From: Candidatus Omnitrophota bacterium
GTDB taxonomy: Bacteria > Omnitrophota > Gorgyraeia > JABMRJ01
Reading direction: 5' to 3'
Length of the DNA: 58,999 nucleotides
NCBI GenBank assembly: GCA_016783555.1
Contig: JADHWH010000003.1
Location: 1-58,999, forward strand
The translations under genes and the position numbers were made by a program. Under the pieces are notes generated by a model. The model did not search any database, had not been told where the DNA came from, and worked only from the letters and a program-made list of their open reading frames with translations. Positions 5,348 to 51,541 of the stretch are shown here, in pieces; within the stretch, counting starts at the first letter, position 1; every line of letters starts with the position of its first letter.

Positions 5348-5883
5348 GAATAGGTATAGGTTACGACATTCATAGGACTGCGCAAGGGCGGAAGCTCGTT
5401 CTCGGCGGGGTAGAGATTCCCTATGTGAGAGGCTTAGAGGGCCATTCGGATGCGGACGCGCTCCTTCATGCGATCTGCGATGCTATGCTGGGGGCCCTGG
5501 GCGAAGGCGACATAGGAATGTTCTTTCCTGACACAGATCCGCAGTATGAAAACGTATCGAGCCTTGTTCTCTTAAAACGTGTTTGGGAGATAGTATCTAA
5601 GAGAAAATGCAAGGTATATAATGTAGATACGGTATTGATTGCGGATGAACCCAAGATAGGGCCCTTTAAGGATGCGATGAAGGAGAACATCTCGAGGATT
5701 TTAAAGGTCTCCAGGGATAAGATCAACATAAAGGCCACAACGAGCGAAGGCGTCGGCACTATAGGCCGAGGCGAGGCGATAGCCGCCCAGGCAGTAGTAT
5801 TGTTGGAGGAAATCAAGAGGCGTAAATCCGAAGCACGAAATCCGAAATTCGAAACAAATTCGAATTACCAAAATCGCGAATGA
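5344..5883 (+). CDS. ispF: 2-C-methyl-D-erythritol 2,4-cyclodiphosphate synthase, with a ~20-aa C-terminal tail encoded by a repeat element
   Basis: RIGIGYDIHR and GHSDADALLHA motifs. The canonical end (..AVVLLEEIK) is followed by RRKSEARNPKFETNSNYQNRE, which is translated from palindromic element copy A. Confidence 0.92.
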   Translation: MRIGIGYDIHRTAQGRKLVLGGVEIPYVRGLEGHSDADALLHAICDAMLGALGEGDIGMFFPDTDPQYENVSSLVLLKRVWEIVSKRKCKVYNVDTVLIADEPKIGPFKDAMKENISRILKVSRDKINIKATTSEGVGTIGRGEAIAAQAVVLLEEIKRRKSEARNPKFETNSNYQNRE

Positions 5884-5962
5884 CCAAAACCAAATGTTTC
5901 GAACATTTGAAAATTCGGATTTCTAATTTGTTTCGGATTTCGATATTCGGATTTCGAATTTT
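5823..5962. repeat. ~140-bp heptad-periodic palindromic intergenic element, copy A (ispF 3' end to gltX)
   Basis: TAAATCCGAAGCACGAAATCCGAAATTCGAAACAAATT ... core GAATGACCAAAACCAAATGTTTCGAACATTTG ... TTTGTTTCGGATTTCGATATTCGGATTTCGAATTT. Confidence 0.9.
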
Positions 5963-5968
5963 TCACTT

Positions 5969-7417
5969 ATGGTAAGAGTAAGATTTGCCCCAAGCCCAAC
6001 AGGTTACTTGCATATAGGCAATGCGCGCACAGCGCTTTTTAACTGGCTCTTTGCGCGCGCAAACAGAGGCTCTTTTATATTAAGGATAGAGGATACGGAC
6101 ATCGAGCGTTCCAAGGAGAACTATGTCGGTAGTATAATGTCAGACTTAAGGTGGCTTGAGCTTGACTGGGACGAGGGTCCGGATAAGGGAGGGCCGTTTG
6201 CGCCGTATAGGCAGTCCGAGAGATTAAGGGTTTATGAGAAGTTCGCCGAAAAGCTGTTAAAAGAAGAGAAGGCCTATTATTGTTACTGCAGCGACGAAGA
6301 GTTAAAGATGAGAAGGTCCGCGGCGCTGAAAGCGGGGCAGACTCCAAAATATGACAATCGCTGCAGAGACCTTCAAGAAGAAGAGATAGAAGAGTTTAAA
6401 AAGAAAAAGAAGAAGCCCGCTTTAAGATTTAAAGTGCCCGATAAGAGAGTAATAATAGATGACATTGTAAGGGGCAGGGTAGAATTCGATACGTCGTTAA
6501 TAGGGGACTTCGTTATCATGAAGTCTACCGAGACGCCCTCTTTTAATTTCGCGGTTGTCTGCGACGATATAACCATGGAAATTTCCCATATAATACGCGG
6601 CGAAGACCACCTTTCTAACGCGCCGAAACACGCGCTTCTCTTCGAAGCGCTCGGTTTTAAGGCGCCTCAGTTCGCGCATATGTCGCTTACCACTGCGCCC
6701 GGCGGCGACAGGCTGTCTAAGAGGACGGGCGCGACCAGCATCGCATACTACAGGGAGACCGGTTATCTGCCTGAGGCTATGGTAAATTACCTTACCCTGC
6801 TCGGGTGGTCTCCGGGCGACGACAGGGAGATTTTATCACGAGAGGAGATAATAAAAGAGTTTAAGCTCGAGAGGCTCTCGAGATCAAGTGAGGCGCTTGA
6901 TCCGAATAAGCTTGATTGGTTGAGCGGTATCTATATAAGAAAGACGGGCCTAGACAGGCTGACGAGGCTTTGTATTCCCTATTTGAAGAAGGCTAAATTT
7001 ATAAAGAAAGACGCGCCCGAGGCAGATGAATTTGATAAGTTGAGAGAGATGGTGGCGGCCGTGCGGGACCATCTATCCAACATCTCGCAGATAAAGGACC
7101 ACGTAGACGTCTTCTTTAAGGATAAGTTCGCCATAAAAGATAAAGAAGCGCAGGATATATTAAAGAGCGCAGCATCCAAAAATGTCTTAAAGGCATTTTT
7201 GGAAAGAGTCGAGGGCTCAAACGCGATAGACGAAGATCTTTTTAATAATTTAGTAAAGGATATTCAAACAAAGACAGGTGTTAAGGGAAGGCTCTTATAT
7301 CAGCCCATAAGGATAGCCATAACCGGCCGGATCCACGGCCCTGAGTTGAAATTGATAATTCCGATAATCGGCAAAGAGAGCTGTGTAAGAAGGGTGAAAC
7401 GAGCGTTAAACAGCTAG
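5969..7417 (+). CDS. gltX: Glutamate--tRNA ligase
   Basis: VRVRFAPSPTGYLHIGNARTA (HIGH region) and RLSKR (KMSKS-like) motifs. Confidence 0.95.
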   Translation: MVRVRFAPSPTGYLHIGNARTALFNWLFARANRGSFILRIEDTDIERSKENYVGSIMSDLRWLELDWDEGPDKGGPFAPYRQSERLRVYEKFAEKLLKEEKAYYCYCSDEELKMRRSAALKAGQTPKYDNRCRDLQEEEIEEFKKKKKKPALRFKVPDKRVIIDDIVRGRVEFDTSLIGDFVIMKSTETPSFNFAVVCDDITMEISHIIRGEDHLSNAPKHALLFEALGFKAPQFAHMSLTTAPGGDRLSKRTGATSIAYYRETGYLPEAMVNYLTLLGWSPGDDREILSREEIIKEFKLERLSRSSEALDPNKLDWLSGIYIRKTGLDRLTRLCIPYLKKAKFIKKDAPEADEFDKLREMVAAVRDHLSNISQIKDHVDVFFKDKFAIKDKEAQDILKSAASKNVLKAFLERVEGSNAIDEDLFNNLVKDIQTKTGVKGRLLYQPIRIAITGRIHGPELKLIIPIIGKESCVRRVKRALNS

Positions 7418-7438
7418 CCACAATAGAAGAGGTGATAT

Positions 7439-8155
7439 ATGATCTGCCTGAATACGGTATTGATAATTTTAGGTGTAATAGCGCTTCACTTTTTAATCAT
7501 CGGCGTCGTCTTCAGAAAAGAGGTAAAGGCATGTTTTGAGAGGGACCCCGCTGCGGTAAATTTTATAGAGGTGCTTCTTACCTATTCGGGGCTGCATGCG
7601 ATAATATCGCACCGCATAGCCCATAGGCTGCGTAAGATGAAGATACCGTTTATACCCAGGCTTATATCGCAAATAAACCGCTTTATAACCGGCATAGAGA
7701 TACACCCAGGCGCGGAGATAGGAAGAGGGCTCTTTATCGACCATGGCATGGGCGTAGTGATAGGAGAGACCTCTGTAATCGGCGATAACGTTACCATATT
7801 TCAGGGCGCAACATTGGGCGGGACAGGCAAAGAGAGGGGAAAGAGACATCCGACCATAGGCAATAACGTTGTCATAGGCGCCGGCGCGAAGATACTGGGC
7901 AACATAACCATAGGCGATAGCGTTCAGATAGGCGCAAATGCCGTGGTTGTAAGGGATATCCCCCAGAATTCAACGGTGGTGGGTGTGCCCGGAAGGATTG
8001 CAAGAAGGGAAGGAAAGAGATTCCCGGGCGTAAGCCTCGAACATACAAAACTGCCCGACCCCCTGGCCCAGGCACTGCAGAAACTACAACACGAAATCGA
8101 TATTATCGAGTCAAAGATGAGAGATTGGCACAAAGAGCAGGAGAAGAAGAGCTAA
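7439..8155 (+). CDS. cysE: Serine O-acetyltransferase
   Basis: ERDPAA...HRIAHRL and hexapeptide repeats ([38 protein letters not shown]). Confidence 0.9.
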
Positions 8156-19073: not shown

Positions 19074-19535
19074 ATGAAAGCGATTATTTCAAAAGGTATA
19101 GACGGGACTGTAGGGATTGGCGCAAAACTGGGCAGACTGCTTAAGGGCGGCGATGTCGTTGCTTTGGTCGGAGAGCTTGGTTCGGGCAAGACAACCCTTG
19201 TAAAAGGGATAGCAGAGGGACTCGGCGTCAAGGACTCAAGATATGTAAACAGCCCTTCATTTGTGATAATCAAGGAATATAGAGGTAATCTTCCCCTCTA
19301 CCATTTCGACATATATAGATTGGATAGTCCTTCTGACATGGAGACCGTCGGGTATAGGGAGTATTTCTACGCAGACGGGGTGAGCGTCATAGAATGGGCA
19401 GACAAGATTAAAGAGCTCCTGCCGGATGAATATTTAAATATAGAGCTCTCCATAAAAGGCAAAAGCGAAAGAGAGATAAAGATTATTCCCAAGGGGACTC
19501 GATACGACGACCTCTTAAGGAGATTGAAGTTATGA
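19074..19535 (+). CDS. tsaE: tRNA t6A37 biosynthesis ATPase TsaE
   Basis: GELGSGKTTLVKGI P-loop, SPSF.. and YHFDIYRL motifs, ~150 aa. Confidence 0.92.
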   Translation: MKAIISKGIDGTVGIGAKLGRLLKGGDVVALVGELGSGKTTLVKGIAEGLGVKDSRYVNSPSFVIIKEYRGNLPLYHFDIYRLDSPSDMETVGYREYFYADGVSVIEWADKIKELLPDEYLNIELSIKGKSEREIKIIPKGTRYDDLLRRLKL

Positions 19536-19652
19536 ACCCCGTTAGACCTCTAAGAGGTACTGATAGGGTTGACGCTCAGGATTTGTAGGGCAGGTTTAAA
19601 CCTGCCCTACAAATCAGGCAGAAATATAATTGAAAGGAGGTCTAACGGGGTG
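19533..19652 (+). repeat. Stop-to-start palindromic element, copy 1 (tsaE>tsaB); arms separated by an inserted 34-bp perfect palindrome
   Basis: TGA-ACCCCGTTAGACCTC (19533-19550) ... GAGGTCTAACGGGG-TG (19637-19652). A partial proximal partner is CCTC-TAA-GAGG. Confidence 0.85.
19581..19614. repeat. 34-bp perfect palindrome of GTAGGGCA type
   Basis: ATTTGTAGGGCAGGTTT|AAACCTGCCCTACAAAT; every base is self-complementary. Confidence 0.9.
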
Positions 19653-20342
19653 AAGATATTAGCTATCGAGACGTCGACCAGGAATTTAAGCATCGCAGTA
19701 GCGGATGAAAATTCTATATTGGCCGAATATAAGGGTGACTCGGTATTAAGACATTCACAGGACCTCATTCCTAATATAGAGATACTGCTAAAGAAGACCG
19801 GCTTAGGTCTGGCCGATATAGACTGTTTCGCAGTAAGTATAGGACCGGGTTCTTTTACCGGTTTAAGGGTGGGTGTCTCCATTATAAAAGGGCTTAACAT
19901 GGTTACGAATATACCCATAGTTACGGTTCCCACGCTGGATGTCATTGCCTGCAATGTCTTAGATACCCCTACCCCTATATGCGTCATATTGGACGCAAAA
20001 AAGAAAAATATATATAGTTCTTTATACAGAGTTAAAGACGGTGATATAATAAGAACGTGGGATTACCTCCTCGTCCCGCCCGATGAATTAATTGAGAGAA
20101 TAGACGATAAAGACGAAGAGATCTTATTCCTGGGAGACGCCATATCTTTTTACGGAGACCTTATTAGAGAAAGGCTTAAGAACGCAAAATTGGCCGATAG
20201 GAAATACTGGTTTCCGGATGCAAAGAGAGTGGCGCGCCTGGGAAGGAACAAATTTAAGAGAAGAGAGTTCGAAGACGCAGATGGTTTGGTGCCTATGTAT
20301 ATGTATTCAAGAGAATGCAACGTGAGGGGTATCGACAGATGA
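19650..20342 (+). CDS. tsaB: tRNA t6A37 biosynthesis protein TsaB
   Basis: ILAIETSTRNLSIAV...GPGSFTGLRVG. I prefer the GTG start at 19650, directly after GGAGGTCTAACGGG. The TTG at 19569 in the ORF track would translate the intergenic repeat. Confidence 0.88.
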   Translation: MKILAIETSTRNLSIAVADENSILAEYKGDSVLRHSQDLIPNIEILLKKTGLGLADIDCFAVSIGPGSFTGLRVGVSIIKGLNMVTNIPIVTVPTLDVIACNVLDTPTPICVILDAKKKNIYSSLYRVKDGDIIRTWDYLLVPPDELIERIDDKDEEILFLGDAISFYGDLIRERLKNAKLADRKYWFPDAKRVARLGRNKFKRREFEDADGLVPMYMYSRECNVRGIDR

Positions 20343-26711: not shown

Positions 26712-26801
26712 TGGGTTCGACGCGCCCGCTTCGCGGGCTTGTGCTTCGACGTTGCTCAGCATCGTTCGAAGCATCGTGAGCTTGTCGAACGACTCACCAT
26801 C
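26709..26801 (+). other. GC-rich, multi-stem structured spacer between ilvD and ilvB (possible cis-regulatory RNA or repeat)
   Basis: A closing helix TGATGG-GTTCGAC ... GTCGAAC-GACTCA-CCATCA encloses hairpins GCCCGC-TTC-GCGGGC and GCTTCGA..TCGAAGC. By eye its composition is much more GC-rich than the other spacers. Confidence 0.45.
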
Positions 26802-26829
26802 ATACTAAGCGACCGAAAGGAATCAAAGT

Positions 26830-31562: not shown

Positions 31563-31701
31563 TTAAATCCGAAGTCCGAAATCCGAAATCCGAAAAAAAT
31601 TCGAAATCCGAATTTTCAAAATTCTGAAGTGTTTTTTTGACCATTTAAATTTTGGTCATTCGATATTGTTTCGAATTTCGATATTCGTATTTCGGATTTA
31701 A
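31563..31701. repeat. Heptad-periodic palindromic element, copy B (leuA to aroE)
   Basis: It has perfect 11-bp termini, TTAAATCCGAA at the left end and TTCGGATTTAA at the right. The arms show 7-nt periodicity (AAATCCG AAGTCCG AAATCCG AAATCCG ...). Confidence 0.9.
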
Positions 31702-33304: not shown

Positions 33305-33477
33305 ATGAGGCCCGGACTTACGGAGCGTAAGCGAACGTAAGTCCGTTGGCCGAATTCAACCCTTGACATTTTGTCTATGAATTTGATAGGGCAAAATGTC
33401 AAGGGTTCAATTCGCACGTTCATAGAAGAGTTTCAAGGGAGATGTATTTACGAAAAATCAAAGATTTTTCGTAAATC
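33305..33477 (+). repeat. ~170-bp three-hairpin composite element, copy 1 (upstream of aroC)
   Basis: The first hairpin is GGACTTACG..CGTAAGTCC. The second is a 64-nt block, GGCCGAATTCAACCCTTGACATTTTGTCTATGAATTTGATAGGGCAAAATGTCAAGGGTTCAAT. The third has a perfect 14-bp stem, ATTTACGAAAAATC-AAA-GATTTTTCGTAAAT. Confidence 0.85.
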
Positions 33478-33501
33478 CAGTACTCATTGAAGGAGGAAAC
33501 C

Positions 33502-34639: not shown

Positions 34640-34774
34640 TTAAATCCGAAGCACGAAATCCGAAATTCGAAACAAATTCAAATTTTTAAATGTCTAAAAC
34701 GCTCAGTTTTGGTCATTTGGATTTTGGCAATTTGAAAATTGTTTCGGATTTCGATATTCGAATTTCGAATTTAA
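34640..34774. repeat. Heptad-periodic palindromic element, copy C (aroC to aroK)
   Basis: The left arm is identical to that of copy A (TTAAATCCGAAGCACGAAATCCGAAATTCGAAACAAATT) and the right arm is TTGTTTCGGATTTCGATATTCGAATTTCGAATTTAA. Confidence 0.9.
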
Positions 34775-34788: not shown

Positions 34789-35295
34789 ATGAAAAACATA
34801 GTGCTGGTTGGATTTATGGGGACGGGCAAAACCGTGATTGCAAAGAGCCTTGCCCGCAGATTGAAGATGAGGTATGTAAGCACAGACGATATTATTGAAC
34901 AGAGAGAGAAGAGGCCCATTAGTGATATATTCGCAAAAGACGGAGAGTCTTACTTTAGAAGAGTAGAGAAAAGAATAGTTAAGGAAGTCTCTCTTATGAA
35001 TAATATAGTAGTGGCGGCGGGCGGCGGCGTGGTTATCGATGAAGAAAACTTAAAGGACCTAAAAAAGAGAGGCGTTGTTATATGCTTGAACGCAAGCGCA
35101 GAAGATATACTGGAGAGGACAAAGACTTACGCGCACAGGCCGCTTTTAAATGTTCCCGACCCGCTGGGCAAGATCAGGGAATTACTGAGAGCGAGAGAGG
35201 CTTATTACAAGAGGGCGGATTACCAGATTAACACATCCGGCAGGACCAGAGATGTCGTGATCGACGAAATAGTCAGATTGTTAGAGAGGTTATGA
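34789..35295 (+). CDS. aroK: Shikimate kinase
   Basis: MKNIVLVGFMGTGKT P-loop, ~168 aa. The upstream 33 codons in the ORF track are a translation of palindromic element copy C. Confidence 0.9.
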   Translation: MKNIVLVGFMGTGKTVIAKSLARRLKMRYVSTDDIIEQREKRPISDIFAKDGESYFRRVEKRIVKEVSLMNNIVVAAGGGVVIDEENLKDLKKRGVVICLNASAEDILERTKTYAHRPLLNVPDPLGKIRELLRAREAYYKRADYQINTSGRTRDVVIDEIVRLLERL

Positions 35296-35345
35296 ATCCC
35301 GTTAGACCATTCTAACGGGATTCCATAAAGAGGTCTAACGGGATG
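35293..35345 (+). repeat. Stop-to-start palindromic element, copy 2 (aroK>dprA), T/A variant
   Basis: TGA-ATCCCGTTAGACC-AT-TCTAACGGGAT-TCCATAAA-GAGGTCTAACGGG-ATG. Confidence 0.88.
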
Positions 35346-36455
35346 AAATATAATATCGATGATTTGATACTGCTTAATATGGCGGGCATAGGCTCTGTAA
35401 GGCTGAATAAGCTCATCAGTTTTTTTGGAAGCATAGAGAATACCCTCAAGGCAAGCCAGGCAGATTTAGAGAGGCTTAATGATATCGGTCCTAAGCTGGC
35501 CCGGAAGATATCCAGGATAAGATATAAGGAGGGCCTAAAAAAAGAAGAGGGGCTTATAGGAAAAAACAGAGCCGCGGTCTTGGCTCTCTTTGATGACGCA
35601 TATCCTGAGAACTTAAAAAATATATACGACCCGCCTTTGCTTCTTTATGTGAAGGGCGATATATTGCCGGAGGATAAGATAGCCGTCTCAATTGTCGGCT
35701 CAAGGAAGGCGAGTCTATACGGCATAAATATATGTCAGGAGATTTCACAACAGCTTGCGGGTTTCGGTGTCGCGGTAATAAGCGGCCTTGCAAGGGGAAT
35801 AGACAGCGCCGCTCATAGAGGCGCGCTAAAGTCAGGCGGACGGACTTTGGCCGTATTGGGAAACGGCCTTGATTCTTTATATCCGCGCGAAAATAGAAGG
35901 CTGGCTGAAGAGATCGCCCGCTCCGGCGCTCTCATATCAGAGTTCCCTATGGAGATGCCGCCCATGCGGCAGAATTTTCCTATACGCAATAGGATTATAA
36001 GCGGCCTAAGCCTGGGCGTAGTCGTAGTTGAGGCGGCAAGAAAGAGCGGTGCGCTTATAACCGCCGCCTGCGCGCTCGATCAGGGAAGAGAGGTCTTCGC
36101 TGTGCCGGGCAAGGCCGGCACAGCAACAGCTATGGGTACGCACGGACTGATAAAAGAAGGGGCAAGACTTGCCGAAAGCGCGGATGACATAATAGACGAA
36201 CTGAATCTAGCGCCGATTGGTTTAGACAACACAAGGAGAACTACAAGCGGTAGAGGTATGGGGGATAATATAAACAGAAGAAGCCTGACTAATCCCCAAA
36301 AAAAGATTTATAATATCTTGTCCGATGAGCCTATACATGTCGATGATCTTATAGACAAAAGCACTTTTCCGGCTGTAGAGGTGACAAGGTTACTTTTGGA
36401 ATTAGAGATTAAGAAATTAGTTAGAGAATTACCGGGGAAGAATTTCGTCAAATGA
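35343..36455 (+). CDS. dprA: DNA-processing protein DprA
   Basis: Rossmann-like DprA core (VSGLARGIDSAAHRGAL ... FPIRNRIISGLS) and a C-terminal winged-helix domain. Confidence 0.92.
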   Translation: MKYNIDDLILLNMAGIGSVRLNKLISFFGSIENTLKASQADLERLNDIGPKLARKISRIRYKEGLKKEEGLIGKNRAAVLALFDDAYPENLKNIYDPPLLLYVKGDILPEDKIAVSIVGSRKASLYGINICQEISQQLAGFGVAVISGLARGIDSAAHRGALKSGGRTLAVLGNGLDSLYPRENRRLAEEIARSGALISEFPMEMPPMRQNFPIRNRIISGLSLGVVVVEAARKSGALITAACALDQGREVFAVPGKAGTATAMGTHGLIKEGARLAESADDIIDELNLAPIGLDNTRRTTSGRGMGDNINRRSLTNPQKKIYNILSDEPIHVDDLIDKSTFPAVEVTRLLLELEIKKLVRELPGKNFVK

Positions 36456-36626
36456 GGCCATGATTTACGAAAATCGAAGATTTTCATAAATCATATGGCC
36501 GAATTTGACCCTTGACATTTTGCCTATGAATTTGATAGGGCAAAATGTCAAGGGTTTAATGCAACCCTTCAAAGAAGAGAAAAGGAGGAGATAGACTTAC
36601 GAAAAATCTCCGATTTTTCGTAAGTC
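36456..36626 (+). repeat. ~170-bp three-hairpin composite element, copy 2 (dprA to topA)
   Basis: The first hairpin is GGCCATGATTTACGAAAATC..GATTTTCATAAATCATATGGCC. The 64-nt block is near-identical to copy 1, with about 4 differences. The last hairpin has a perfect 15-bp stem, GACTTACGAAAAATC-TCC-GATTTTTCGTAAGTC. Confidence 0.85.
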
Positions 36627-36641
36627 TAGGTCTTATTAAAT

Positions 36642-39587: not shown

Positions 39588-39720
39588 TAAACCCGAAGCA
39601 CGAAGCCCGAAATTCGAAACAAATTCGAAATTCGAATTTTCAAAACTTTTTGTTTTGGTCATTCGCGATTTCGGTAATTCGTATTTGTTTCGGATTTCGA
39701 TATTCGGATTTCGAATTTTA
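39588..39720. repeat. Heptad-periodic palindromic element, copy D (xerC to waaA)
   Basis: The termini are oriented as in copy A, but the core GTTTTGGTCATTCGCGATTTCGGTAATTCG is the reverse complement of the copy A core. Confidence 0.9.
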
Positions 39721-42046: not shown

Positions 42047-43955
42047 GATAGTAAGTTTCATCGTATCCTCTCTGCCGTTAAGTCTTGCGCTGTGGACAGG
42101 AAGGGTGTTAGGCCTTTTTATGTACCACTTCCACCCTAAGCGAAAGAGAATCGCGTATGCCAATCTCAAGGCCGCCTTCTCCAAAGAGAAAGAACCTTGT
42201 GAATTAAAATCTATACTCAGGCGCACCTACCAGAATTACGGGCAGAATATTATAGAGATGTTAAGGATACCCAGGGTCGACAGCGATTACCTGAAGAGAT
42301 TTATTACACTCGCAGGCCGCGCGAATTTCGACGAGGCAGAGGCCAAAAAAAGAGGCATAATCCTTCTTACGAGCCACTTCGGAAACTGGGAACTCGCAAG
42401 CCTTAAGAGCGCCGTGGAGGGCTATCCTATTTATGTCTTGGCCAGGCCCCAGAATTTAGAGAGGTTAAATAATCTCCTTAACAGCTATAGAGAGAAGCTG
42501 GGGTGTAGGGTGATAAACAGGGGGATGCCCTCAAGAGAGATGATAAGGGCCTTGAGGGATAATAAGATAGTCGGGATACTGGCCGACCAGGATGTAGGAA
42601 AATCCGGCATATTTATAAATCTTCTGGGAAGGCCTGCGTCACATGCGATAGGCCCGGCGAGACTGGCCAGGGATACAAATGCTTTAATATTGCCTATCTT
42701 CATAGTGAGGGAAAAAGGGCCAAAGCATCTTCTCTATATTGAGGAGCCTTTCGCCGTTTCGAATACGCCCGACCGCAACGCCGATATCAAGGAGGCGTTA
42801 GAGAAGCACGCTGGGACATTGGAGTCCTATATTAAGCGCTACCCGGATCAGTGGATGTGGGTATATACGAGATGGAAATCGACTCCCAAAAGGAGAATAG
42901 TAATATTAAGCGACGGAAAGCCCGGCCATTTGAATCAGTCATTGGCGGCGTTTAATATTATTAAAAGATGCAGGCGGGATTCGGGATGTAGAGACGAGGA
43001 TACGTCTCTTGAGATAATAGATGTTAAGTTTAAGAACCGTATATCGAGAATCGCCCTTTGGGTCTCTTCGCTCTTTGCCTCGCACGCCTGCCAGGGGTGC
43101 GCCATGCGCTTTAAGTTTGCCATGAGGGAAGATTCCTACAATCGCCTTACTAAGACTTATGCGGATATCGTAATATCCTGCGGCTCATCGCTTGGCGCCG
43201 TAAATATATTCCTATCGAAAGAGAATAACGCGAAGAATGTTATCATAATGAAGCCCGGTATCGGGACCTTAAAAGATTTTGATGTAGCTATAATACCGGC
43301 ACATGACAGGCCGAAGGAGGCCGATAACGTCGTAGTCACCGAAGGTTCCCCCACGCTTATAGATTCAAAGACGATGGAAGACGGCGCAAGAAATATCCGC
43401 CATGTCGCGAATCTTACAGAAAGAAAAAGACTCGGACTTCTCATAGGAGGGGATAACCCGGAGTATAGCCTCAGCGCCTGGTTAGCGGGCGAACTTATAA
43501 AACAAGTCACGGGTTTGATTGAGGAAAGAGATATGGAGCTTCTTGTGACCACTTCGAGGCGTACGCCGAAGAAGATCGAGGAGATGCTAAAGACCGGCTT
43601 AAGGCGCAACCCCCGCTGCAAACTCTTGATAATAGCCAATGAAAAGAATATAGATAACGCCGTAGGGGGCATATTAAATTTGAGCGAGATTGTATTGGTA
43701 TCTGCGGAGAGCATCTCTATGGTATCGGAGGCGGCATCATCAGGCAAAAAGACTATAGTCTTCGACCTCGAGACAAAGAGGCCTTCTTTTAAGCACGATT
43801 ATGCCATAGAGAGGCTCGCTTCGGAGAATTATATAACGCGAACCCCTGTCAGTAGGATTAGGAATACAGTTTTGGATTTATCAAACAAGGGAGATTCTGT
43901 AAAGAGACTCGATAATACCGAAAGGATGTATAAGAAATTATATAGGATTATTTAG
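41997..43955 (+). CDS. Fusion: lipid A late acyltransferase (LpxL/HtrB family) plus ELM1/DUF1022 (GtrOC1-like, GT-B-like) domain
   Basis: The N-terminal ~300 aa carry SHFGNWEL and ILADQD acyltransferase motifs. The C-terminal ~350 aa start with RIVILSDGKPGHLNQSLAA, typical of ELM1/DUF1022 proteins. Confidence 0.78.
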   Translation: MAQTRFTKDYAVYIGVRIVSFIVSSLPLSLALWTGRVLGLFMYHFHPKRKRIAYANLKAAFSKEKEPCELKSILRRTYQNYGQNIIEMLRIPRVDSDYLKRFITLAGRANFDEAEAKKRGIILLTSHFGNWELASLKSAVEGYPIYVLARPQNLERLNNLLNSYREKLGCRVINRGMPSREMIRALRDNKIVGILADQDVGKSGIFINLLGRPASHAIGPARLARDTNALILPIFIVREKGPKHLLYIEEPFAVSNTPDRNADIKEALEKHAGTLESYIKRYPDQWMWVYTRWKSTPKRRIVILSDGKPGHLNQSLAAFNIIKRCRRDSGCRDEDTSLEIIDVKFKNRISRIALWVSSLFASHACQGCAMRFKFAMREDSYNRLTKTYADIVISCGSSLGAVNIFLSKENNAKNVIIMKPGIGTLKDFDVAIIPAHDRPKEADNVVVTEGSPTLIDSKTMEDGARNIRHVANLTERKRLGLLIGGDNPEYSLSAWLAGELIKQVTGLIEERDMELLVTTSRRTPKKIEEMLKTGLRRNPRCKLLIIANEKNIDNAVGGILNLSEIVLVSAESISMVSEAASSGKKTIVFDLETKRPSFKHDYAIERLASENYITRTPVSRIRNTVLDLSNKGDSVKRLDNTERMYKKLYRII

Positions 43956-44005
43956 TCGTTAATATTCGCCCAGACGAAACTAACGACTAAATACTAACGA
44001 CTAAA
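43951..44005. repeat. TAGTCGTTA / TAACGACTA palindromic repeat, locus 1
   Basis: TTTAGTCGTTA-ATATTCGCCCAGACGAAAC-TAACGACTAAA-TAC-TAACGACTAAAC. Confidence 0.8.
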
Positions 44006-44006
44006 C

Positions 44007-46145
44007 ATGAACGTACTGCAGATCTTACCGGAATTAAATATCGGCGGAGTAGAAAGGGGCACAGTAGACCTCGCAAGATACCTTATGGCCAATGATCATA
44101 AGGCGGTGGTGGTCTCCGGCGGCGGCAGGCTTGTCAGGGAGCTGGATATGATAGGCGCAAGACACTATCGCCTGCCGGTAGGCAAGAAGTCCCTTATTAC
44201 CATGGCTGGAATGGTCGGCAAGCTCTGCGAGATAATAAAGAGGGAGAACATAGATATCGTTCATGCCCGCAGCAGGGTACCCGGCTGGATAGCCTTCTTT
44301 GCCTGTAAGATTACAAAGAGGCCTTTTATTACGACCGCGCACGGATACTATAAGAATATCTTCACAAGCCAGGTGATGGGCTGGTCCAAATTCGTTATCG
44401 CCGCCTCACACGTAATAGCAAGGCATATGATAGACGGTTTTAAGATTCCCCGCTCAAAGATAAAGTTTATACCGCGCGGTGTGGATCTCAATCGATTCGA
44501 GTTTGGCGAACCGAAAGAAAAAAGGATTAAAAAGAGGGATCTGCCGGGCCTTGCGAGGGACGGCGGCTTTACCGTCGGAGTCATATCGAGATTAACCCCG
44601 ATAAAAGGGCATATATACTTAATAAAGGCGTTGTCTGTAGTATCGAGGATGGTGCCCAAACTTAAATTGCTTATAGTAGGCGAGCCTTCCCCGGGAAAAG
44701 AAGGGTATAAGAGGGAGCTCGAGCTTTTGGTAAGGAGGTTAGGGCTTTCCCAGGTTGTAGAGTTTACGGGATGGAAAGAAGACATACCGGAAGTAATGTC
44801 ACAATTGGATCTCTTGGTACTGCCCAGTGTAACACAGGAGGCGTTCGGCAGAGTCATTATTGAGGCCCAGGCCTGCGGCGTACCTGTTGTAGCGACAAGG
44901 ATAGGCGGCATAGTCGATCTTATAGAGGACGGCGTAAATGGCCTGCTTGTAACGCCTGAAGATATACAGGCGCTTACAGAGTCGATGTTGAAGATCTATA
45001 AAGATCCCGAGTCTGCCCAGAGATTGGCCGTTGAGGCAAGGAGGAATGTCGAAGAGAAATTTTCATTAGATAAGATGGCGCAGAGGACAGTTGATTTGTA
45101 TAAAGAGACAATCGAGTCTCGTAATATACTGGTAATAAAAGTGAGCGCCTTAGGCGATGTAATACTCTCCATGCCTTCGCTTGGCGCTATAAGGTCTAAA
45201 TACCCCAATGCCACAATAAAGGTATTGGTAGGATTGGAATCGCGCCAGGTCTTTAAAGGATGCCCGTATATTGATGAGGTAATAGTCTGCGATTTTAAAG
45301 GCAGGGATAGATCTATGAAGAGTCTTTGGAGATTGGGGGCCCTGTTGAGGAATTCAAACTTTGATATGGTGATAGACCTTCAGAATAACCGGAGGAGCCA
45401 CATACTCGCATTCTTAAGTCTCGCCCCGCTCAGGTTCGGTTACTCAAACGGCAAGCTTTCATTTTTATTGAATAAAAAGGTTGAAGGCCCGAAGGACTAT
45501 ATCGATCCGGTCAGCCATCAGTTCAGGACTTTAAATTTAGCGGGGATAAAGTCAGATAATAAGAGACTAAAGCTATGGCCTCAGGAAGAGGAAGAAGAAT
45601 GGGCCGAGGGTTTTATAAAGGCCAATTGGGTAAATTTATCCAAACAGCGCCTTATCGGCATAAGCCCCAGGGCGAGCAGGCGCTGGTCGAGCAAGAATTG
45701 GCCGGTTCAGAATGTCGCTCTTCTATGCGATGAGCTTGCCCGGAGATTCAATACAAGGGTTGTTATAACCGGCACCAAAGATGACATAAGAGAGGCCCAT
45801 TCTATAAGGTCTATGGCAAAGAGTAAACCTATAATAGCGGCAGGGAAGACCGATATATTGCAATTAGCGGCCTTAATAAAGAGGTGTTCGATATTTATCA
45901 CAACCGACAGCGCTGCTATGCATATAGCGTCCTGCGTAAAGACGCCTTTTATAGCGCTATTCGGGCCTACAGAGCACGAGAGGCACGCGCCTGTATCTGC
46001 GGAGTATACTGTAATCGCCAAGGAACTGAAGTGCAGGCCGTGTTATCGGCCGACGTGCGGCAAGGGCTATAAATGTATGAAGAAGATCAGTGTTGAAGAC
46101 GTCATGAACGCTGTTGAGAGGTATCTGGGATATGAACCCCGTTAG
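44007..46145 (+). CDS. Fusion: GT4 glycosyltransferase plus GT9 (heptosyltransferase-family) domain, copy 1
   Basis: The N-terminal half has the GT4 E-x7-E region (EAFGRVIIEAQACGVPVVATRIGG). The C-terminal half has the GT9 signatures ILVIKVSALGDV and DSAAMHIA...LFGPT. Confidence 0.85.
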   Translation: MNVLQILPELNIGGVERGTVDLARYLMANDHKAVVVSGGGRLVRELDMIGARHYRLPVGKKSLITMAGMVGKLCEIIKRENIDIVHARSRVPGWIAFFACKITKRPFITTAHGYYKNIFTSQVMGWSKFVIAASHVIARHMIDGFKIPRSKIKFIPRGVDLNRFEFGEPKEKRIKKRDLPGLARDGGFTVGVISRLTPIKGHIYLIKALSVVSRMVPKLKLLIVGEPSPGKEGYKRELELLVRRLGLSQVVEFTGWKEDIPEVMSQLDLLVLPSVTQEAFGRVIIEAQACGVPVVATRIGGIVDLIEDGVNGLLVTPEDIQALTESMLKIYKDPESAQRLAVEARRNVEEKFSLDKMAQRTVDLYKETIESRNILVIKVSALGDVILSMPSLGAIRSKYPNATIKVLVGLESRQVFKGCPYIDEVIVCDFKGRDRSMKSLWRLGALLRNSNFDMVIDLQNNRRSHILAFLSLAPLRFGYSNGKLSFLLNKKVEGPKDYIDPVSHQFRTLNLAGIKSDNKRLKLWPQEEEEEWAEGFIKANWVNLSKQRLIGISPRASRRWSSKNWPVQNVALLCDELARRFNTRVVITGTKDDIREAHSIRSMAKSKPIIAAGKTDILQLAALIKRCSIFITTDSAAMHIASCVKTPFIALFGPTEHERHAPVSAEYTVIAKELKCRPCYRPTCGKGYKCMKKISVEDVMNAVERYLGYEPR

Positions 46146-46186
46146 ACCTTATAGGTCTAACGGGGATGAGGAGGTCTAACGAGGTG
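46133..46186 (+). repeat. Stop-to-start palindromic element, copy 3 (GT4::GT9 #1 > #2)
   Basis: TGAACCCCGTTAGACC-TTATA-GGTCTAACGGGG-ATGAG-GAGGTCTAACGAGG-TG. The upstream ORF here stops at the internal TAG (46143-46145). Confidence 0.88.
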
Positions 46187-48343
46187 AACATATTACTGCT
46201 GACCACACATCTTAATATCGGCGGGATTGCCTCTTACATAGTAAACCTGGCCAAGCGCCTGAAAAGAAAAGGCCATAAGGTGGTAGTCTCTTCAAGCGGC
46301 GGCGATATGGTCGATGAATTAACGAAAGAAGACATTCCTCACGTCTATATCAATATAAGGACAAAGTCGGAGCTTAGCCCCAAGCTTTTAATTTCGATGC
46401 CCAAGGTCCTGTCATTGATTAAAGACGAAAAGATAGATGTTATCCACGCCCATACGCGCGTAACGCAGGTATTGGCGTCGGCCGTATCTCGATTGCTTGC
46501 TATTCCGTATATTGCCACGTGCCACGGCTTCTTCAGGCCGCACTTCTCGAGAAGGATATTTAAGTGCTGGGGCGACAAGACGATAGCGATAAGCGATGCC
46601 GTCAAGGCCCATCTTATAGATGATTTTTATCTCAAGCCCGATAATATAGCCCTGATCTATAACGGTGTAGATTTAGAGAAATTTAGAAAAGATATAGAGA
46701 ACAGCCGGAAGGAGTCTCTTAGAAAAAATCTGGGTTTAACAGATAAAGAGAGAGTGGTTATAGGCGCCATAGGCAGATTATCTCCTGTAAAAGGTTATAG
46801 GTATCTAATCGAGGCCTTTAAGAGGCTTATGGACAAAGATAGCGGAGCCTTGCGGCTTTTGATAGTAGGAGACGGCCCTGAAAGAGAATCACTCAAAGCG
46901 CAATGCCTGAGGCTTGGTGTAGATGAGTATGTTAAATTCGCATCACCTAATCCCGATACACCGCTTCTCTTTTCAATTATTGATATATTCGTGTCAAGCT
47001 CCGTGCAGGAAGGGCTGGGGCTCTCTTTAATAGAGGCGCTTGCTTCAGGAAGCCCCGTTGTTGCTACAGACGTAGGCGGTATTAAGAGTGTGGTAAAGGA
47101 TAAAGAGACCGGTATGTTAGTAAGGCCGAAAGAGGCAGGGGCGCTTGCAGAGGGCATCTCGCAACTATTGAAAAGTGCGGATTTGAGAAATAAGTTATCA
47201 AATGAAGGGCGTAAGTATGCGGAAGAAAAATTTGATATAAAGAATATGGCTGATGAAGTCGAAAGGGTATATAAAGAGGTAACGAAAAGAGATCCCCGCC
47301 CCGTAAGACCCGTAGGGTCTAACGGGGCCCGCATACTCATAGTAAATGTTAACTGGCTGGGCGATGTCTTATTTACGACACCCTTTATAAAGGCGATAAG
47401 AAGAAGGTTCCCTGCGAGTTACATGGCTTGTATGGTGGTGCCTCGCTGCAAGGAGATACTGGAGGATAATCCGCGGATCGATGAGATTATAATCTACGAT
47501 GAAAAAGGCAAACACAGAAGCATTATGGGAAAGCTCAAGTTCATTATAACTTTAAAAAGAAAGAACTTCAGCACCGCTTATATACTCCATAGATCCTTTA
47601 CAAAGGCCCTTATGGTATATTTAAGCGGCATAAAGAGAAGGATAGGTTATAATACAAAAAGAAGAGGCCCTCTTCTTACTAAGGCTATCGACGAAACAGA
47701 TCCTGGTATTCATAAAGTAGAATATTTTTTGAAGATAGCGGCTAGCTGCGGCGCGGAAACGGGCGATAAAGATTATGAGTTTTTTGTCAAGAGGCCGCAG
47801 AGAGATAAGATAGACAAGCTTCTCAGAGATAGAGACATAAGGGGGACAGATATTATCGTTGCCTTAAACCCCGGGGGAAACTGGCCTCCTAAGAGGTGGC
47901 CGAAAGAACACTTTGCCGAGCTTGCGGACAGGCTTTCAAGGGAGCTTAATGTCAAGGCGATTATAACAGGCGCGCCTAAAGATTTAAAGCTTGCGCAAGA
48001 TATCATAGATTTATCACAGACCAGGCCGGCAAGTGCCTGCGGTCAGACATCAATAAAAGAGCTGGCCGCCCTTTTGGAAAGATCAAACCTTGTCATATCG
48101 TCGGACTCAGGGCCTATGCACATAGCCTTGAGCGTAAAGACAAAGGTGATTACGTTATTCGGCCCGACATCAGAGGAGATAACCGGCCCGTATGGGAGGG
48201 GTAATTATCTCGTTATCAAAAAAGACGTCGGCTGTCCGGTCCCGTGTTATAATTTTGACTGCAGGGATTATAAGTGCATGAAGGCGGTAACCGTTGACGA
48301 GGTCTTCAATAAAGCGCGGGAGATATTATTTGGCTCTGAATGA
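46166..48343 (+). CDS. Fusion: GT4 glycosyltransferase plus GT9 domain, copy 2 (alternative GTG start at 46184)
   Basis: GT4 region (EGLGLSLIEALASGSPVVATDVGG), then the linker RDPRPVRPVGSNGA encoded by a repeat relic, then GT9 (RILIVNVNWLGDV ... DSGPMHIA..LFGPT). Confidence 0.82.
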   Translation: MRRSNEVNILLLTTHLNIGGIASYIVNLAKRLKRKGHKVVVSSSGGDMVDELTKEDIPHVYINIRTKSELSPKLLISMPKVLSLIKDEKIDVIHAHTRVTQVLASAVSRLLAIPYIATCHGFFRPHFSRRIFKCWGDKTIAISDAVKAHLIDDFYLKPDNIALIYNGVDLEKFRKDIENSRKESLRKNLGLTDKERVVIGAIGRLSPVKGYRYLIEAFKRLMDKDSGALRLLIVGDGPERESLKAQCLRLGVDEYVKFASPNPDTPLLFSIIDIFVSSSVQEGLGLSLIEALASGSPVVATDVGGIKSVVKDKETGMLVRPKEAGALAEGISQLLKSADLRNKLSNEGRKYAEEKFDIKNMADEVERVYKEVTKRDPRPVRPVGSNGARILIVNVNWLGDVLFTTPFIKAIRRRFPASYMACMVVPRCKEILEDNPRIDEIIIYDEKGKHRSIMGKLKFIITLKRKNFSTAYILHRSFTKALMVYLSGIKRRIGYNTKRRGPLLTKAIDETDPGIHKVEYFLKIAASCGAETGDKDYEFFVKRPQRDKIDKLLRDRDIRGTDIIVALNPGGNWPPKRWPKEHFAELADRLSRELNVKAIITGAPKDLKLAQDIIDLSQTRPASACGQTSIKELAALLERSNLVISSDSGPMHIALSVKTKVITLFGPTSEEITGPYGRGNYLVIKKDVGCPVPCYNFDCRDYKCMKAVTVDEVFNKAREILFGSE
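47299..47327 (+). repeat. In-frame relic of the stop-to-start element inside the GT4::GT9 #2 linker
   Basis: CCCCGTAAGACC-CGTA-GGGTCTAACGGGG is translated as PVRPVGSNG, exactly at the GT4/GT9 domain boundary. Confidence 0.75.
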
Positions 48344-48398
48344 TGAACCCCGTTAGACCTCATAAGAGGTCAGCGGGGCGAGGAGGTCTAACGGGGTG
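48341..48398 (+). repeat. Stop-to-start palindromic element, copy 4 (GT4::GT9 #2 > GT9)
   Basis: TGA-TGAACCCCGTTAGACCTC-ATAA-GAGGTCAGCGGGG-CGAG-GAGGTCTAACGGGG-TG. Confidence 0.9.
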
Positions 48399-49376
48399 AA
48401 GATAGATAAAAAAGATATAAAACGAATATTGTTGATTACCCTTACCAATGTAGGCGATATAATCTTGACCACGCCTATTATTGCCGCGCTCGACAAAGCC
48501 TTTCCAGATGCGCGGCTCGATGTCATGGTGGGGCCTCTCGGAAAGAATATATTTATTAATCATCCCGGGGTTTTTAAGGTAATAATCTATGACAAGCATG
48601 TCTCTATTGGCGAGAAGAAACGGCTGGTGCAGAAATTGAAACATATGAAATATGATTTGGTAATAGACCTTAAGAATTCTATGTTTCCCATGCTTATAGG
48701 GTCAAGATACAGAACGAGCCCCTTGCAGACAGTCCCTAAGGATGTCATCCATAAGAGAGATTTTCACTTATGGAAATTAAAATATTTTGATATAGATACG
48801 CGGGATGTTCCGTTTTCCATCCATGTGAGCAGAAAGGACGAGGATTATATAGATTATTTGCTTCGTGACATGCCGAATAAGGATAAGCTGGTTGCTGTAA
48901 GCCCTACGGCGAAGAGCCTGATAAAGAGGTGGAAGAAAAATGGCTTTGCAGAAGTTTGCGACAAGCTTAAGAAGGAACTGGGAGCGACGGTGGCTATGGT
49001 CGGTGATCGATCCGACAGAGAGAGCATTGATGAAATAGCGCGTGACATGAAATCCGACACCGTTAATCTTGCCGGTATGACAACCATACCCCAGCTTGCG
49101 CATCTCATAAAGAATTCCAGGCTCCTTATCTCCAATGACAGCGCACCCATGCATATAGCCAGCGCGGTCGGCACAAAGGTCCTCGCGATCTTCGGGCCGA
49201 CGGACCCGAATAAATACGGGCCCTTGGGCAAAGGCGACAAGGTTATAAAAAAAGAGTTACATTGTTCTCCCTGCGAGATAGCGCAGTGTAAGTTTAAACA
49301 CGAGTGCATGAAACTGATTACGGTTGATGAGGTGTATGAGACAGCAAGGAAGATGTTGGAAGAGACCAGAGGCTAG
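48396..49376 (+). CDS. GT9-family glycosyltransferase (heptosyltransferase-like)
   Basis: RILLITLTNVGDII and NDSAPMHIA..IFGPT motifs, with a GTG start immediately after GGAGGTCTAACGGG. Confidence 0.88.
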   Translation: MKIDKKDIKRILLITLTNVGDIILTTPIIAALDKAFPDARLDVMVGPLGKNIFINHPGVFKVIIYDKHVSIGEKKRLVQKLKHMKYDLVIDLKNSMFPMLIGSRYRTSPLQTVPKDVIHKRDFHLWKLKYFDIDTRDVPFSIHVSRKDEDYIDYLLRDMPNKDKLVAVSPTAKSLIKRWKKNGFAEVCDKLKKELGATVAMVGDRSDRESIDEIARDMKSDTVNLAGMTTIPQLAHLIKNSRLLISNDSAPMHIASAVGTKVLAIFGPTDPNKYGPLGKGDKVIKKELHCSPCEIAQCKFKHECMKLITVDEVYETARKMLEETRG

Positions 49377-49380
49377 ATTG

Positions 49381-50430
49381 ATGTTGAATGCAAAGAGGAT
49401 ATTGATAACGCGGACTGATAGATTAGGCGATGTTATCCTTTCAACGCCGGTGTTGAGGGCTGTAAGAGAGGTATATCCGGATAGTTTCATAGCTATGATG
49501 GTAAGGCCGTACACAAAAGAATGTGTCGAAGGCAACCCATATATTAATGAGGTCATACTGTATGATAAATACGGGATAGATAAGAGTATATCGAGTTCAT
49601 TTAGGTTTGCGCTGGAGTTGCGAAAGAGGAGGTTCGACCTTGCGCTGATCCTGCATCCGACAAACAGGATGAATTTAATGATCTTTTTGGCCGGTATCCC
49701 CAGGAGGGTAGGTTTTAATAAAAAACTGGGATTTTTATTGACAAAAAGGCTGCCGCACACGAAACATTTAGGCGAAAAACATGAAGTCGATTATACTCTG
49801 GATATAGTAAGGGCCATAGGGATAATACCCAAACATAGGTCTTTATACATGCCGATAAAAAAATCGGTCCAAAAGAGCGTAGGCGAAACCCTTTTAAGGC
49901 ATGGAGTCTTTGAGAGCGATAGACTGGTAGCGCTGCATCCGTCTGCAAGCTGCCTTTCTAAAAAGTGGCCGTCAAAGAAATTCGCCATACTGGCCGATAG
50001 GCTGATAGACAAATACAATGTAAAGATTGCGCTTATAGACGGATCCGACGGCAAGGCGGATGCGGATGAGACTAGACGGAATATGAGGCGTGATGTAATT
50101 GATCTTTCCGGAAAGACCGGCATCTCTGAACTCGCGTCATTGCTTAAAAGATGCGTCCTTTTCATCTCGAATGATTCCGGCCCGGTGCATCTCTCATCAG
50201 CGGTCGGAACCCCCGTGATAAGCATATTCGGCAGAAAAGATCCCGGCCTGGGTCCTATTCGCTGGGGTCCAACGGGAAGATATGATATAATGTTACATAA
50301 AGACGTAGAGTGCGAACGCTGCCTTGCGCACAATTGCGATAAGGATTTTTTATGTCTTAATGCTATAAAGGAAGACGAGGTGTTAGAAAAAGCTGAAGCC
50401 ATTTTAAAAAGGAATCGGAGGCTGCCATGA
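49381..50430 (+). CDS. GT9-family glycosyltransferase (heptosyltransferase-like)
   Basis: RILITRTDRLGDV and NDSGPVHL..IFG motifs. I prefer the ATG at 49381, 5 nt after the upstream stop, over the ORF-track start at 49324. Confidence 0.86.
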   Translation: MLNAKRILITRTDRLGDVILSTPVLRAVREVYPDSFIAMMVRPYTKECVEGNPYINEVILYDKYGIDKSISSSFRFALELRKRRFDLALILHPTNRMNLMIFLAGIPRRVGFNKKLGFLLTKRLPHTKHLGEKHEVDYTLDIVRAIGIIPKHRSLYMPIKKSVQKSVGETLLRHGVFESDRLVALHPSASCLSKKWPSKKFAILADRLIDKYNVKIALIDGSDGKADADETRRNMRRDVIDLSGKTGISELASLLKRCVLFISNDSGPVHLSSAVGTPVISIFGRKDPGLGPIRWGPTGRYDIMLHKDVECERCLAHNCDKDFLCLNAIKEDEVLEKAEAILKRNRRLP

Positions 50431-51395
50431 TGAAAGCAATGTTATGCAAGGGTAAGAAAGAGATAATAAGCTCTTTTAAGTATAGCGAAATAAAGGACGC
50501 ATTGAAGAGAGACGACAACCTTATATGGGTTGAGCTCGAGAACCCGACAAAGGATGAACTGGCTCTGATAAAGGACGACTTTAACCTGCATCCCCTTACT
50601 GTTGAAGACTGCGTTAATACAAATGCGCGTCCCAAGATAGACCAGTTTCCGACATATCTATTTCTGATTTTACATGCGGCGGGATATAATGAGTCGACCT
50701 TCAAGGTTAAGACGCTTGAATTAAATATATGCGTCGGGAAAAATTTCCTGTTGACCATCCACATGGATTCCATACCTTCTCTTAGGAATGCCTGGAATAG
50801 GGCGGAAAAGAATATAAGCCTCATGTCCGGCGGCTCCGATAACCTGCTCTATCAGGTAATCGATTCATTGGTCGATAACTATTTTCCTGTAATCGATATG
50901 CTGGATACAAGGATAGACAAAATAGAGAACGAAGTCTTTTCGAAACCTCAAGAGCCAACGCTTAAGCAGATATTTTCCGTAAAGAACGACGTCCTTTTCT
51001 TAAGAAGGTTTATGGCGCCCCAGAGAGAGACAATAAATCTCCTGGCAAAAGGAGGCCATTCTTTTATAAATCCGTCGACCGGTATATATTTCCGCGATAT
51101 CAGTGATAACCTCATATTCATCCTCGATACTATTGATACCTACAGAGACACTTTGGCGAGCGCGCTGGACGCATATCTGTCGAACATAGGCCAAAAGACA
51201 AACGAGATTATGAAGACATTAACGATTATCGCGACTATAATGATGCCCCTTACCCTTATCACGGGTATATACGGCATGAACTTTAGGCATATGCCGGAGA
51301 TTGGCTGGCGGTTCGGTTATTTAGGTTTCTACATACTTGTGGCCTTAGTTGCTGGCGGCATGCTCGTATATTTTAAGAAGAACAAATGGTTCTAA
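50427..51395 (+). CDS. corA: Magnesium/cobalt transporter CorA
   Basis: Two C-terminal TM helices with a YGMNF motif and CorA-like length. Confidence 0.92.
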   Translation: MMKAMLCKGKKEIISSFKYSEIKDALKRDDNLIWVELENPTKDELALIKDDFNLHPLTVEDCVNTNARPKIDQFPTYLFLILHAAGYNESTFKVKTLELNICVGKNFLLTIHMDSIPSLRNAWNRAEKNISLMSGGSDNLLYQVIDSLVDNYFPVIDMLDTRIDKIENEVFSKPQEPTLKQIFSVKNDVLFLRRFMAPQRETINLLAKGGHSFINPSTGIYFRDISDNLIFILDTIDTYRDTLASALDAYLSNIGQKTNEIMKTLTIIATIMMPLTLITGIYGMNFRHMPEIGWRFGYLGFYILVALVAGGMLVYFKKNKWF

Positions 51396-51400
51396 TTGAA

Positions 51401-51541
51401 TAAATTCGAAATCCGAATATCGAAATCCGAAACAATTCCGAATTTTCAAAATTGTGAATGACCAAAACCAAATGTTTCGAACATTTGAAAATTCGAGTTT
51501 AGAATTTGTTTCGAATTTCGGATTTCGTGCTTCGGATTTAT
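51401..51541. repeat. Heptad-periodic palindromic element, copy E (corA to CNNM1), termini inverted relative to copy A
   Basis: The right end is the exact reverse complement of the copy A left arm (TAAATCCGAAGCACGAAATCCGAAATTCGAAACAAA). The core is in the same orientation as in copy A. Confidence 0.9.

Follow-up and report, generated by a model that had tools for sequence, protein, structure and literature searches.

The window analyzed here, the whole 58,999-nt (59-kb) stretch of contig C48 from the 1.77-Mb genome of a Candidatus Omnitrophota bacterium (78 contigs, 45% G+C, 93% complete), contains five imperfect palindromes of about 133-140 bp each (copies A-E), which were found by sequence reading and with a repeat finder. 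Sequence comparison indicates that these copies are miniature internal-deletion derivatives, without an open reading frame (ORF), of a cassette of the intervening sequence (IVS) type. In the complete form of this cassette, a small four-helix-bundle gene is bracketed by two inverted arrays, each with about five AAATYCG heptads. We consider it likely that the five palindromes are gene-less members of this cassette family and that they behave, function and spread as proposed below.

A full-length copy was found on another contig of the same genome (C66:1601-2075), where the family arms lie on both sides of a 345-bp interval. This interval is a 115-aa ORF (C66:1670-2017), whose product matched PF05635 (23S_rRNA_IVP; E = 1.2e-16) and also the pentameric structure PDB 2RLD. 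The PF05635 proteins, also called S23p, are related to Avd, the accessory protein of diversity-generating retroelements. The sequence directly 5' of the ORF start is AATGACCAAAAC (also written ATGACCAAAAC), and that directly 3' of the ORF stop is TTTTGAAAATTCG. The centre of the short copies is made up of the sequences that adjoin the start and stop of the C66 ORF, the loop retaining ATGACCAAAA(C) and the post-stop stretch. Partial-deletion intermediates that keep an N-terminal remnant of the ORF also exist, and the arm-to-arm distance is bimodal, being either 50-150 nt or 350-600 nt. The same arms around the C66 gene, the shared centre, the intermediates and the two size classes argue that the short copies arose by internal deletion. 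One full copy coexists with about 20 miniatures in the genome. The GACCAAAAC core described in the initial annotation is present, but it is not free-standing: it is found within the ATGACCAAAA stretch that immediately precedes the cargo gene, and because the ORF itself opens with ATGACCAAAA in two relatives (L235 and L106), the core corresponds to the gene start region.

The five copies were located within 1 nt of the positions given in the initial annotation, and the genes flanking all of them are same-strand housekeeping genes, whose spacer from stop to start is nearly filled. Copy A (5823..5961, outer arms on the + strand) lies at the ispF/gltX junction, copy B (31564..31700, +) at the leuA-like/aroE junction, copy C (34641..34773, +) at the aroC/aroK junction, copy D (39588..39719, +) at the xerC/D-like/kdtA junction, and copy E (51402..51540, -), in which the whole element is inverted, at the corA/CNNM-CBS junction. 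None of them has an ORF of its own, and all are located between protein-coding genes, not in rRNA. They begin 5-16 nt after the upstream stop codon, except for copy A, which the ispF frame enters by 61 nt to give a 20-residue tail past the end of the YgbB domain, and the distance from their end to the following start codon is 3-15 nt. The contamination of ORF calls by the arms, which had been anticipated, was seen in this ispF tail and in copy C, where a naive call puts a false aroK start at 34690, the true start being the ATG at 34789.

The arms of copy A illustrate the heptad structure. The left arm (5823..5857, +) reads AAATCCG AAGCACG AAATCCG AAATTCG AAACAA, and the right arm (5928..5961, +) reads TTGTTTCG GATTTCG ATATTCG GATTTCG AATTT and includes the CGATATT heptad. 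The lag-7 autocorrelation of the 45-nt arms was 0.53-0.68, in comparison with 0.25 ± 0.08 in 1311 45-nt windows from the same 59 kb, and the lag-14 value was likewise elevated. A match of five heptads per arm to the pentameric protein was considered; a tract measure gave 2-5 heptads per arm, although this measure breaks up on degenerate heptads. The outer arms show a conserved asymmetry, in that one carries an AAGCACG heptad and its partner CGATATT; by this feature copies A-D are in + orientation and copy E is in - orientation. The single inverted copy of the initial annotation was thus confirmed, with the refinement that copy A has its inner segment the other way round from copies B-D, so that its core reads like that of copy E. 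A fixed polarity of the arm asymmetry with respect to the cargo gene was rejected, because either orientation occurs. The palindrome frequently reaches out to TGT|TAAAT...ATTTA|ACA.

A short stretch that we take to be left over from the start region of the four-helix-bundle gene, now lost, was located in every copy: ATGACCAAAA at 5880..5889 (+) in copy A, a start-codon remnant at 31650..31659 (-; TTTTGGTCAT on the + strand) in copy B, at 34707..34716 (-) in copy C, at 39653..39662 (-) in copy D, and at 51458..51467 (+; ATGACCAAAA on the + strand) in copy E. The RNA minimum free energy of the copies was -37 to -53 kcal/mol, while that of shuffled sequence was about -20 ± 3, and arm pairing spans about 55-60 bp, in line with the hairpin of about 60 bp predicted earlier. 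No Rfam family matched at the gathering threshold anywhere in the window, and the reading of the copies as one Rfam RNA family therefore fails.

A profile made from the five copies was used to search the genome and gave about 22 loci, so the possibility of a purely local duplication also falls away. Almost all of these loci lie between same-strand genes, in stop-to-start junctions, and their orientation with respect to the genes is the same in 11 cases and opposite in 9. Several copies terminate in a T-run, and the inner segment was found in either orientation relative to the arms. The identity among the copies of this genome (mean 0.75, maximum 0.94) was higher than that between them and copies in other genomes (mean 0.60). 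From these values, the family was amplified inside the host genome, each copy being most closely related to other copies of that genome. Four copies, copy A among them, have the flipped inner segment and cluster tightly, which indicates that it arose once and was then copied. On the evidence of this group, the gene-less form itself seems to propagate.

Base pairing between the arms was analyzed in 162 distinct elements. At heptad positions 1-4, 6, and 7 the bases hardly vary and are paired, including in a fully compensated G-to-T dialect, whereas position 5 (C/T) is independent between the two arms. One heptad level is nearly always mismatched, with AATATCG opposite AAATCCG or AAGCACG; this asymmetry is partly imposed by the search pattern, and it was also seen in loci found via the protein. 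Between cassettes, the identity is 74% for the arms and 67% for the proteins, against a saturated 29% at fourfold-degenerate sites of the gene, so that purifying selection acts on the gene and on the arm sequence alike. The constraint on the arm sequence exceeds what base pairing needs.

Synteny with six genomes of the same order, all of other genera, extends over genes g24-g45 of the window, and the baseline junction length in these genomes is -8 to +16 nt. For copies B, C, D, and E, between one and three of these six relatives have an empty junction (B in G001 and G006; C in G002, G004, and G006; D in G001, G002, and G004; E in G004). Elsewhere among the relatives, unrelated palindromes occupy these junctions, and many of them are heptad-periodic with other units (ATAGCGN, GGACAGT, GAGTCCG, GGGTCAG, GGTTTGC, and CTGAAAG). 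Some insert is present at 30-50% of the junctions of this region in several genomes, and shared occupancy of a junction therefore needs no special explanation. The idea that one ancestral element was rewritten in each genome at a given junction was dropped, since independent insertion at this level of occupancy is sufficient. Among 106 elements no target-site duplication was found, flanking direct repeats of 2-6 nt being no commoner than in shuffled pairings. Insertion leaves no target-site duplication and occurs mostly in transcribed DNA, the sites being operon stop-to-start junctions in the host and, elsewhere, also tips of 23S rRNA helices and coding genes entered in frame. [quoted passage not shown] A dispersed, non-coding family with terminal inverted repeats in both orientations was indeed found, but the class did not hold, because there is neither a target-site duplication nor a transposase partner; the only partner with matching ends encodes the four-helix-bundle protein. 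A different insert was observed at the xerD-like/kdtA junction of G006 (L139), where a 180-nt palindrome is followed by a duplicate of about 27 nt of the upstream gene's 3' end with its stop codon. This looks like another mode of insertion, in which the gene end is rebuilt.

The distribution of the family was investigated by scanning a collection of species-representative genomes with a 34-nt arm pattern, which matched at least 119 stretches. The arms were present in more than 100 genomes from about ten phyla, both figures being lower bounds. The matches listed include the candidate phyla radiation (CPR)/Patescibacteria, Desulfobacterota, Planctomycetota, Verrucomicrobiota, Aminicenantes/Acidobacteriota, Binatia, Calditrichota, and Gammaproteobacteria, and the majority of them are complete elements without a gene. 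A cultured carrier among them, Wenzhouxiangella sp. 15190, has the cassette in the same dialect together with miniature copies. At five loci in different phylum-level groups, a four-helix-bundle gene lies between the same arms and encodes a protein about 60% identical to that of C66; these loci belong to Deltaproteobacteria metagenome-assembled genomes (MAGs), a MAG labelled Alcaligenaceae, a Berkelbacteria (CPR) MAG, and Wenzhouxiangella sp. 15190. A metagenome scan gave at least 566 relatives of the C66 protein, and in most of the 76 metagenome loci with usable flanks, the arm upstream of the gene has arrays of the AAATCCG or AAATCCT type. The 34-nt arm pattern had no match in viral contigs, and phage as a vector was rejected. 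In a Paceibacterota MAG (L090:1711-2741), two family arms 963 bp apart bracket a 135-aa ORF resembling a PemK/MazF-type toxin, which could be an alternative cargo, or else the arms could belong to two separate elements.

Of the 60 flanked copies outside the host genome, 41 lie between same-strand genes and 11 lie within long ORFs. One foreign copy interrupts a Transketolase_N domain in frame, and another sits, apparently in frame, within the AMP-binding domain match of a nonribosomal peptide synthetase (NRPS). In a Saccharibacteria MAG (L016), four copies were found within the 23S rRNA (LSU) gene, which looks incompletely assembled; two of the four map to terminal helix loops, at model positions of about 152-178 and 275-297. 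The 23S rRNA gene of the host genome contains no heptad repeats. This gene (C72:38056-41722; L120 257-3923) exceeds the Rfam model by about 740 nt and holds a 165-aa ORF (L120 1243-1740, minus strand) with the LAGLIDADG-like motif LSGYADGEGCF, and on account of this excess and this ORF it probably carries a group I intron with a homing endonuclease.

The 7-nt periodicity, which had been called unusual, is real, but it proved to be common to many four-helix-bundle/IVS-type cassettes. A second four-helix-bundle gene of the host (C20:5019-5458), 37% identical to the one on C66, has arms of AAAGCGN/AAAACTA, and gene-less palindromes of this type, about 100 bp long, occur at at least 13 paired sites across the genome (for example, C23:20436-20539, C27:3715-3818, C56:4121-4219, and C76:29540-29643). 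In Omnitrophota relatives, inverted heptad arrays with differing units were found on both sides at 9 of the 12 distinct four-helix-bundle loci inspected. In Wenzhouxiangella sp. 15190, a heptad array was present at all four inspected genes and on both sides in three of them, and in a 61-genome sample of its order (Xanthomonadales) 15 of 19 loci passed the lag-7 threshold on at least one side. The arrays in this order include GGGAATC (L276) and GGGACCG (L258/L284). In 156 flanks, lag 7 exceeded lags 5, 6, 8, and 9. The four-helix-bundle genes sampled in these three bacterial groups are thus usually bracketed by inverted heptanucleotide arrays, which have many different sequences.

Arrays of these kinds have been described before. 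Inverted pairs of GGGAATC in Xanthomonas (PMC4692102) and GGGACCG elements in Geobacter metallireducens (PMC2700814) were reported as repeats without an explanation. In Coxiella burnetii, the S23p ORF lies in the loop of an IVS whose stem is cut by RNase III, and three tandem GACAGAT heptamers are located upstream of the ORF, the repeat number varying among strains (PMC4990558). Our literature search found no paper linking heptad arrays with four-helix-bundle/IVS genes, and a search by sequence string returned only unrelated primers. IVS-type cassettes are known; the association of four-helix-bundle genes with inverted heptad arrays is newly drawn here and possibly unreported.

Processing of the hairpin was considered in relation to RNase III. 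An RNase III gene was undetectable in the host genome with PF14622, with a signature regular expression, and by tblastn with the rnc gene of a relative. It was also undetectable in the six same-order genomes, and among 31 genomes of the class 24 lacked a detectable gene and 7 had one. Since RNase III was undetectable, the hairpin probably persists in the polycistronic mRNA of the host lineage. An anti-correlation between RNase III and four-helix-bundle genes was rejected, because, of the 24 genomes without RNase III, 17 had four-helix-bundle genes, as did 4 of the 7 that have it.

We propose that the arms pair in the transcript to form an imperfect hairpin of about 55-60 bp, which would sequester the insert, so that insertion does almost no harm. 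Where the host has RNase III, the stem would be cut as in classical IVSs. In the host lineage, the hairpin would most likely be a passive structure, acting at most as a barrier to 3' exonucleases or as a spacer between cistrons. The least secure step is the spread of the elements, for which a trans-acting factor reading the heptad arms is probably required. As this factor we favour the cassette's own four-helix-bundle protein, on account of the two pairs of master and miniature elements with matched dialects in one genome and of the selection on the arms.

Several results weigh against this proposal. Without a detectable RNase III, the processing that defines an IVS cannot run in the classical way in this host. 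The fold energy was -44.9 for the transcribed strand and -44.4 for the other, showing no bias for the transcribed strand, and a test for strand selection at the RNA level accordingly gave no signal. No insertion event was caught: presence/absence polymorphism was tried as a source of evidence, but every further assembly of this organism with the flanking proteins is 100% identical and has the element. An exact empty site in a close relative was not found, the relatives being all of other genera and too diverged for the junctions to be defined exactly. The matching of protein clades with heptad dialects can be explained by co-inheritance alone. To our knowledge, PF05635 proteins have no DNA-moving or other enzymatic activity. 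Finally, the eight Y1 transposase genes of the genome are possible mobilisers.

The last of these points leads to the best of the alternatives, which we nevertheless consider unlikely: that the copies are REP/REPIN-like hairpins moved in trans by a Y1 (HUH, IS200/RAYT-type) transposase, with the four-helix-bundle gene as a passenger. Y1 transposases use single-stranded DNA hairpins and leave no target-site duplication, and both the lack of duplications at the 106 elements and the folding of the element into a long hairpin on either strand would fit such a mechanism. The genome has eight matches to PF01797 (Y1_Tnp), at C50:1745-2416, C68:68367-69062, and C70:758-1429 and on C60, C46, C42 (two), and C64. 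However, AAATCCG arms are missing from all seven Y1 genes examined. Their flanks have short inverted repeats of other kinds (GGGACAGACACCTATTTT and ACACCCCGTAGGTGTAA, for example), and those around several of the genes suggest separate REP/RAYT-type systems in the genome. Where matching arms do enclose a gene, in a single element, it is the four-helix-bundle gene, and the link between this gene and heptad arms spans phyla and dozens of dialects, which is not expected of a passenger.

A slightly less probable explanation is that the copies are a host-domesticated regulatory RNA, similar to ERIC or REP elements, that tunes operons as an mRNA stabiliser, partial terminator, or translational coupler. 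The position of the copies exactly between the stop and start codons of co-transcribed housekeeping genes, the strong hairpins, the purifying selection on the arms, and the T-run at the end of several copies would all be in keeping with such a role. The random orientation to the genes and the absence of a transcribed-strand bias in fold energy are not, and the same junctions in sister genera are empty or hold unrelated palindromes. Members of the family in rRNA loops and in ORFs fit opportunistic insertion instead. A local origin of the copies, with heptad arrays produced by replication slippage at junctions and their likeness due to convergence or gene conversion, is very improbable and largely refuted: unrelated heptad arrays do occur at neighbouring junctions and in relatives, and repeat number does differ among Coxiella strains (PMC4990558), but the copies share non-periodic inner sequence, length, start-codon remnant, and arm asymmetry, and the same complete sequence is present across many phyla, so that slippage may account for growth and shrinkage of the arrays, not for dispersal of the family.

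A wider form of the preferred explanation, the cassette reading, can be offered only tentatively, as we hold it to be possible rather than probable. In this form, PF05635 (S23p/Avd-like) proteins in general would be sequence-specific readers of their own heptad arrays and the trans factors of a separate class of palindromic mobile cassettes inserting without target-site duplication. A particular heptad dialect and a particular swarm of ORF-less copies would then go with each cassette lineage. Binding of one heptad by each subunit of the pentameric ring is a speculation. If true, the reader model would provide one mechanism for the origin of rRNA IVSs, the function of S23p, and the over-representation of heptanucleotides (cyanobacterial short tandemly repeated repetitive (STRR) sequences, GGGAATC, and GGGACCG).

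The family was compared with known systems. Like the 23S rRNA IVSs of Leptospira, Coxiella burnetii, Brucella, and Xanthomonas (PMC4990558), it has long-stem terminal inverted repeats, a PF05635 gene in the loop of the full form, tandem heptamers beside the ORF, an ORF without a good ribosome-binding site, and members in 23S rRNA helix loops (in the Saccharibacteria MAG). In contrast to those IVSs, the window copies lie in mRNA spacers, have lost the ORF, belong to a multicopy family (about 22 loci), and occur in a host without detectable RNase III. With MITEs and the Correia elements (NEMIS) of Neisseria, the copies share a length of 100-160 bp, the lack of coding capacity, terminal inverted repeats, the occurrence in both orientations, a presumed co-transcription as intergenic hairpins, and derivation from a longer form by internal deletion; however, no target-site duplication is found here, the longer form has no transposase, and the arms consist of 7-nt units. 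Rickettsia palindromic elements (RPEs) are similar in size and in their in-frame coding insertions, seen here in the transketolase and probably in the NRPS adenylation domain, but there is no sequence relation, the in-frame cases of the present family are in other phyla, and RPEs have no known cargo-bearing form. The REP/REPIN-RAYT systems are also intergenic hairpin repeats without target-site duplication, with a single-copy gene flanked by associated repeats. Here, this gene encodes a four-helix-bundle protein and not a Y1 transposase, the arms are 3-4 times longer, AT-rich, and heptad-periodic, and the RAYT-like genes of the host carry different repeats. The heptanucleotide repeats of cyanobacteria (STRR), Xanthomonas, and Geobacter have the same 7-nt period, are mostly intergenic, and often form convergent inverted pairs; in the portions of the reports available, PMC4692102 and PMC2700814 treat them as simple-sequence, G-quadruplex, or regulatory motifs and draw no link to PF05635 or IVSs.

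These elements have consequences for annotation, because they add false gene tails and starts (ispF and aroK) and break assemblies at repeats, and in other phyla they lie within rRNA genes and protein-coding genes. The link between heptad arrays and cassettes gives a testable handle on the S23p/IVS family, which has been known for about 30 years without a known function, as well as on bacterial heptanucleotide repeats, which have been catalogued without explanation. Experiments are possible in the cultured Wenzhouxiangella sp. 15190, which has both the cassette and miniatures. A host without detectable RNase III that tolerates dozens of long operon hairpins also bears on how long double-stranded RNA is handled.

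Other inserts were observed at junctions of the window. A 118-nt GC-rich insert (26712-26829) lies between g24 and g25; three relatives lack it, and a fourth has a 64-nt GTCCCGTTAGACC-type element at this junction. A repeat family of the form GAACCCCGTTAGACC...GGTCTAACGGGGTGAA makes stop-to-start palindromes at six further junctions (19526-19656, 35286-35347, 46126-46190, 48337-48404, 52533-52600, and 56433-56520). Two 85%-identical copies of a composite palindrome, consisting of GACCCTTGACATTTTG...CAAAATGTCAAGGGTT and TTACGAAAAATC...GATTTTTCGTAA, occupy the junctions before aroC (33338-33491) and before g34 (36487-36640), which are tight in most relatives. Arrays of ACTAACG/ACTAAAT units at 43952-44013 and 54601-54677 represent another heptad dialect, and the junction that holds the first of these spans just 4-8 nt in the relatives.

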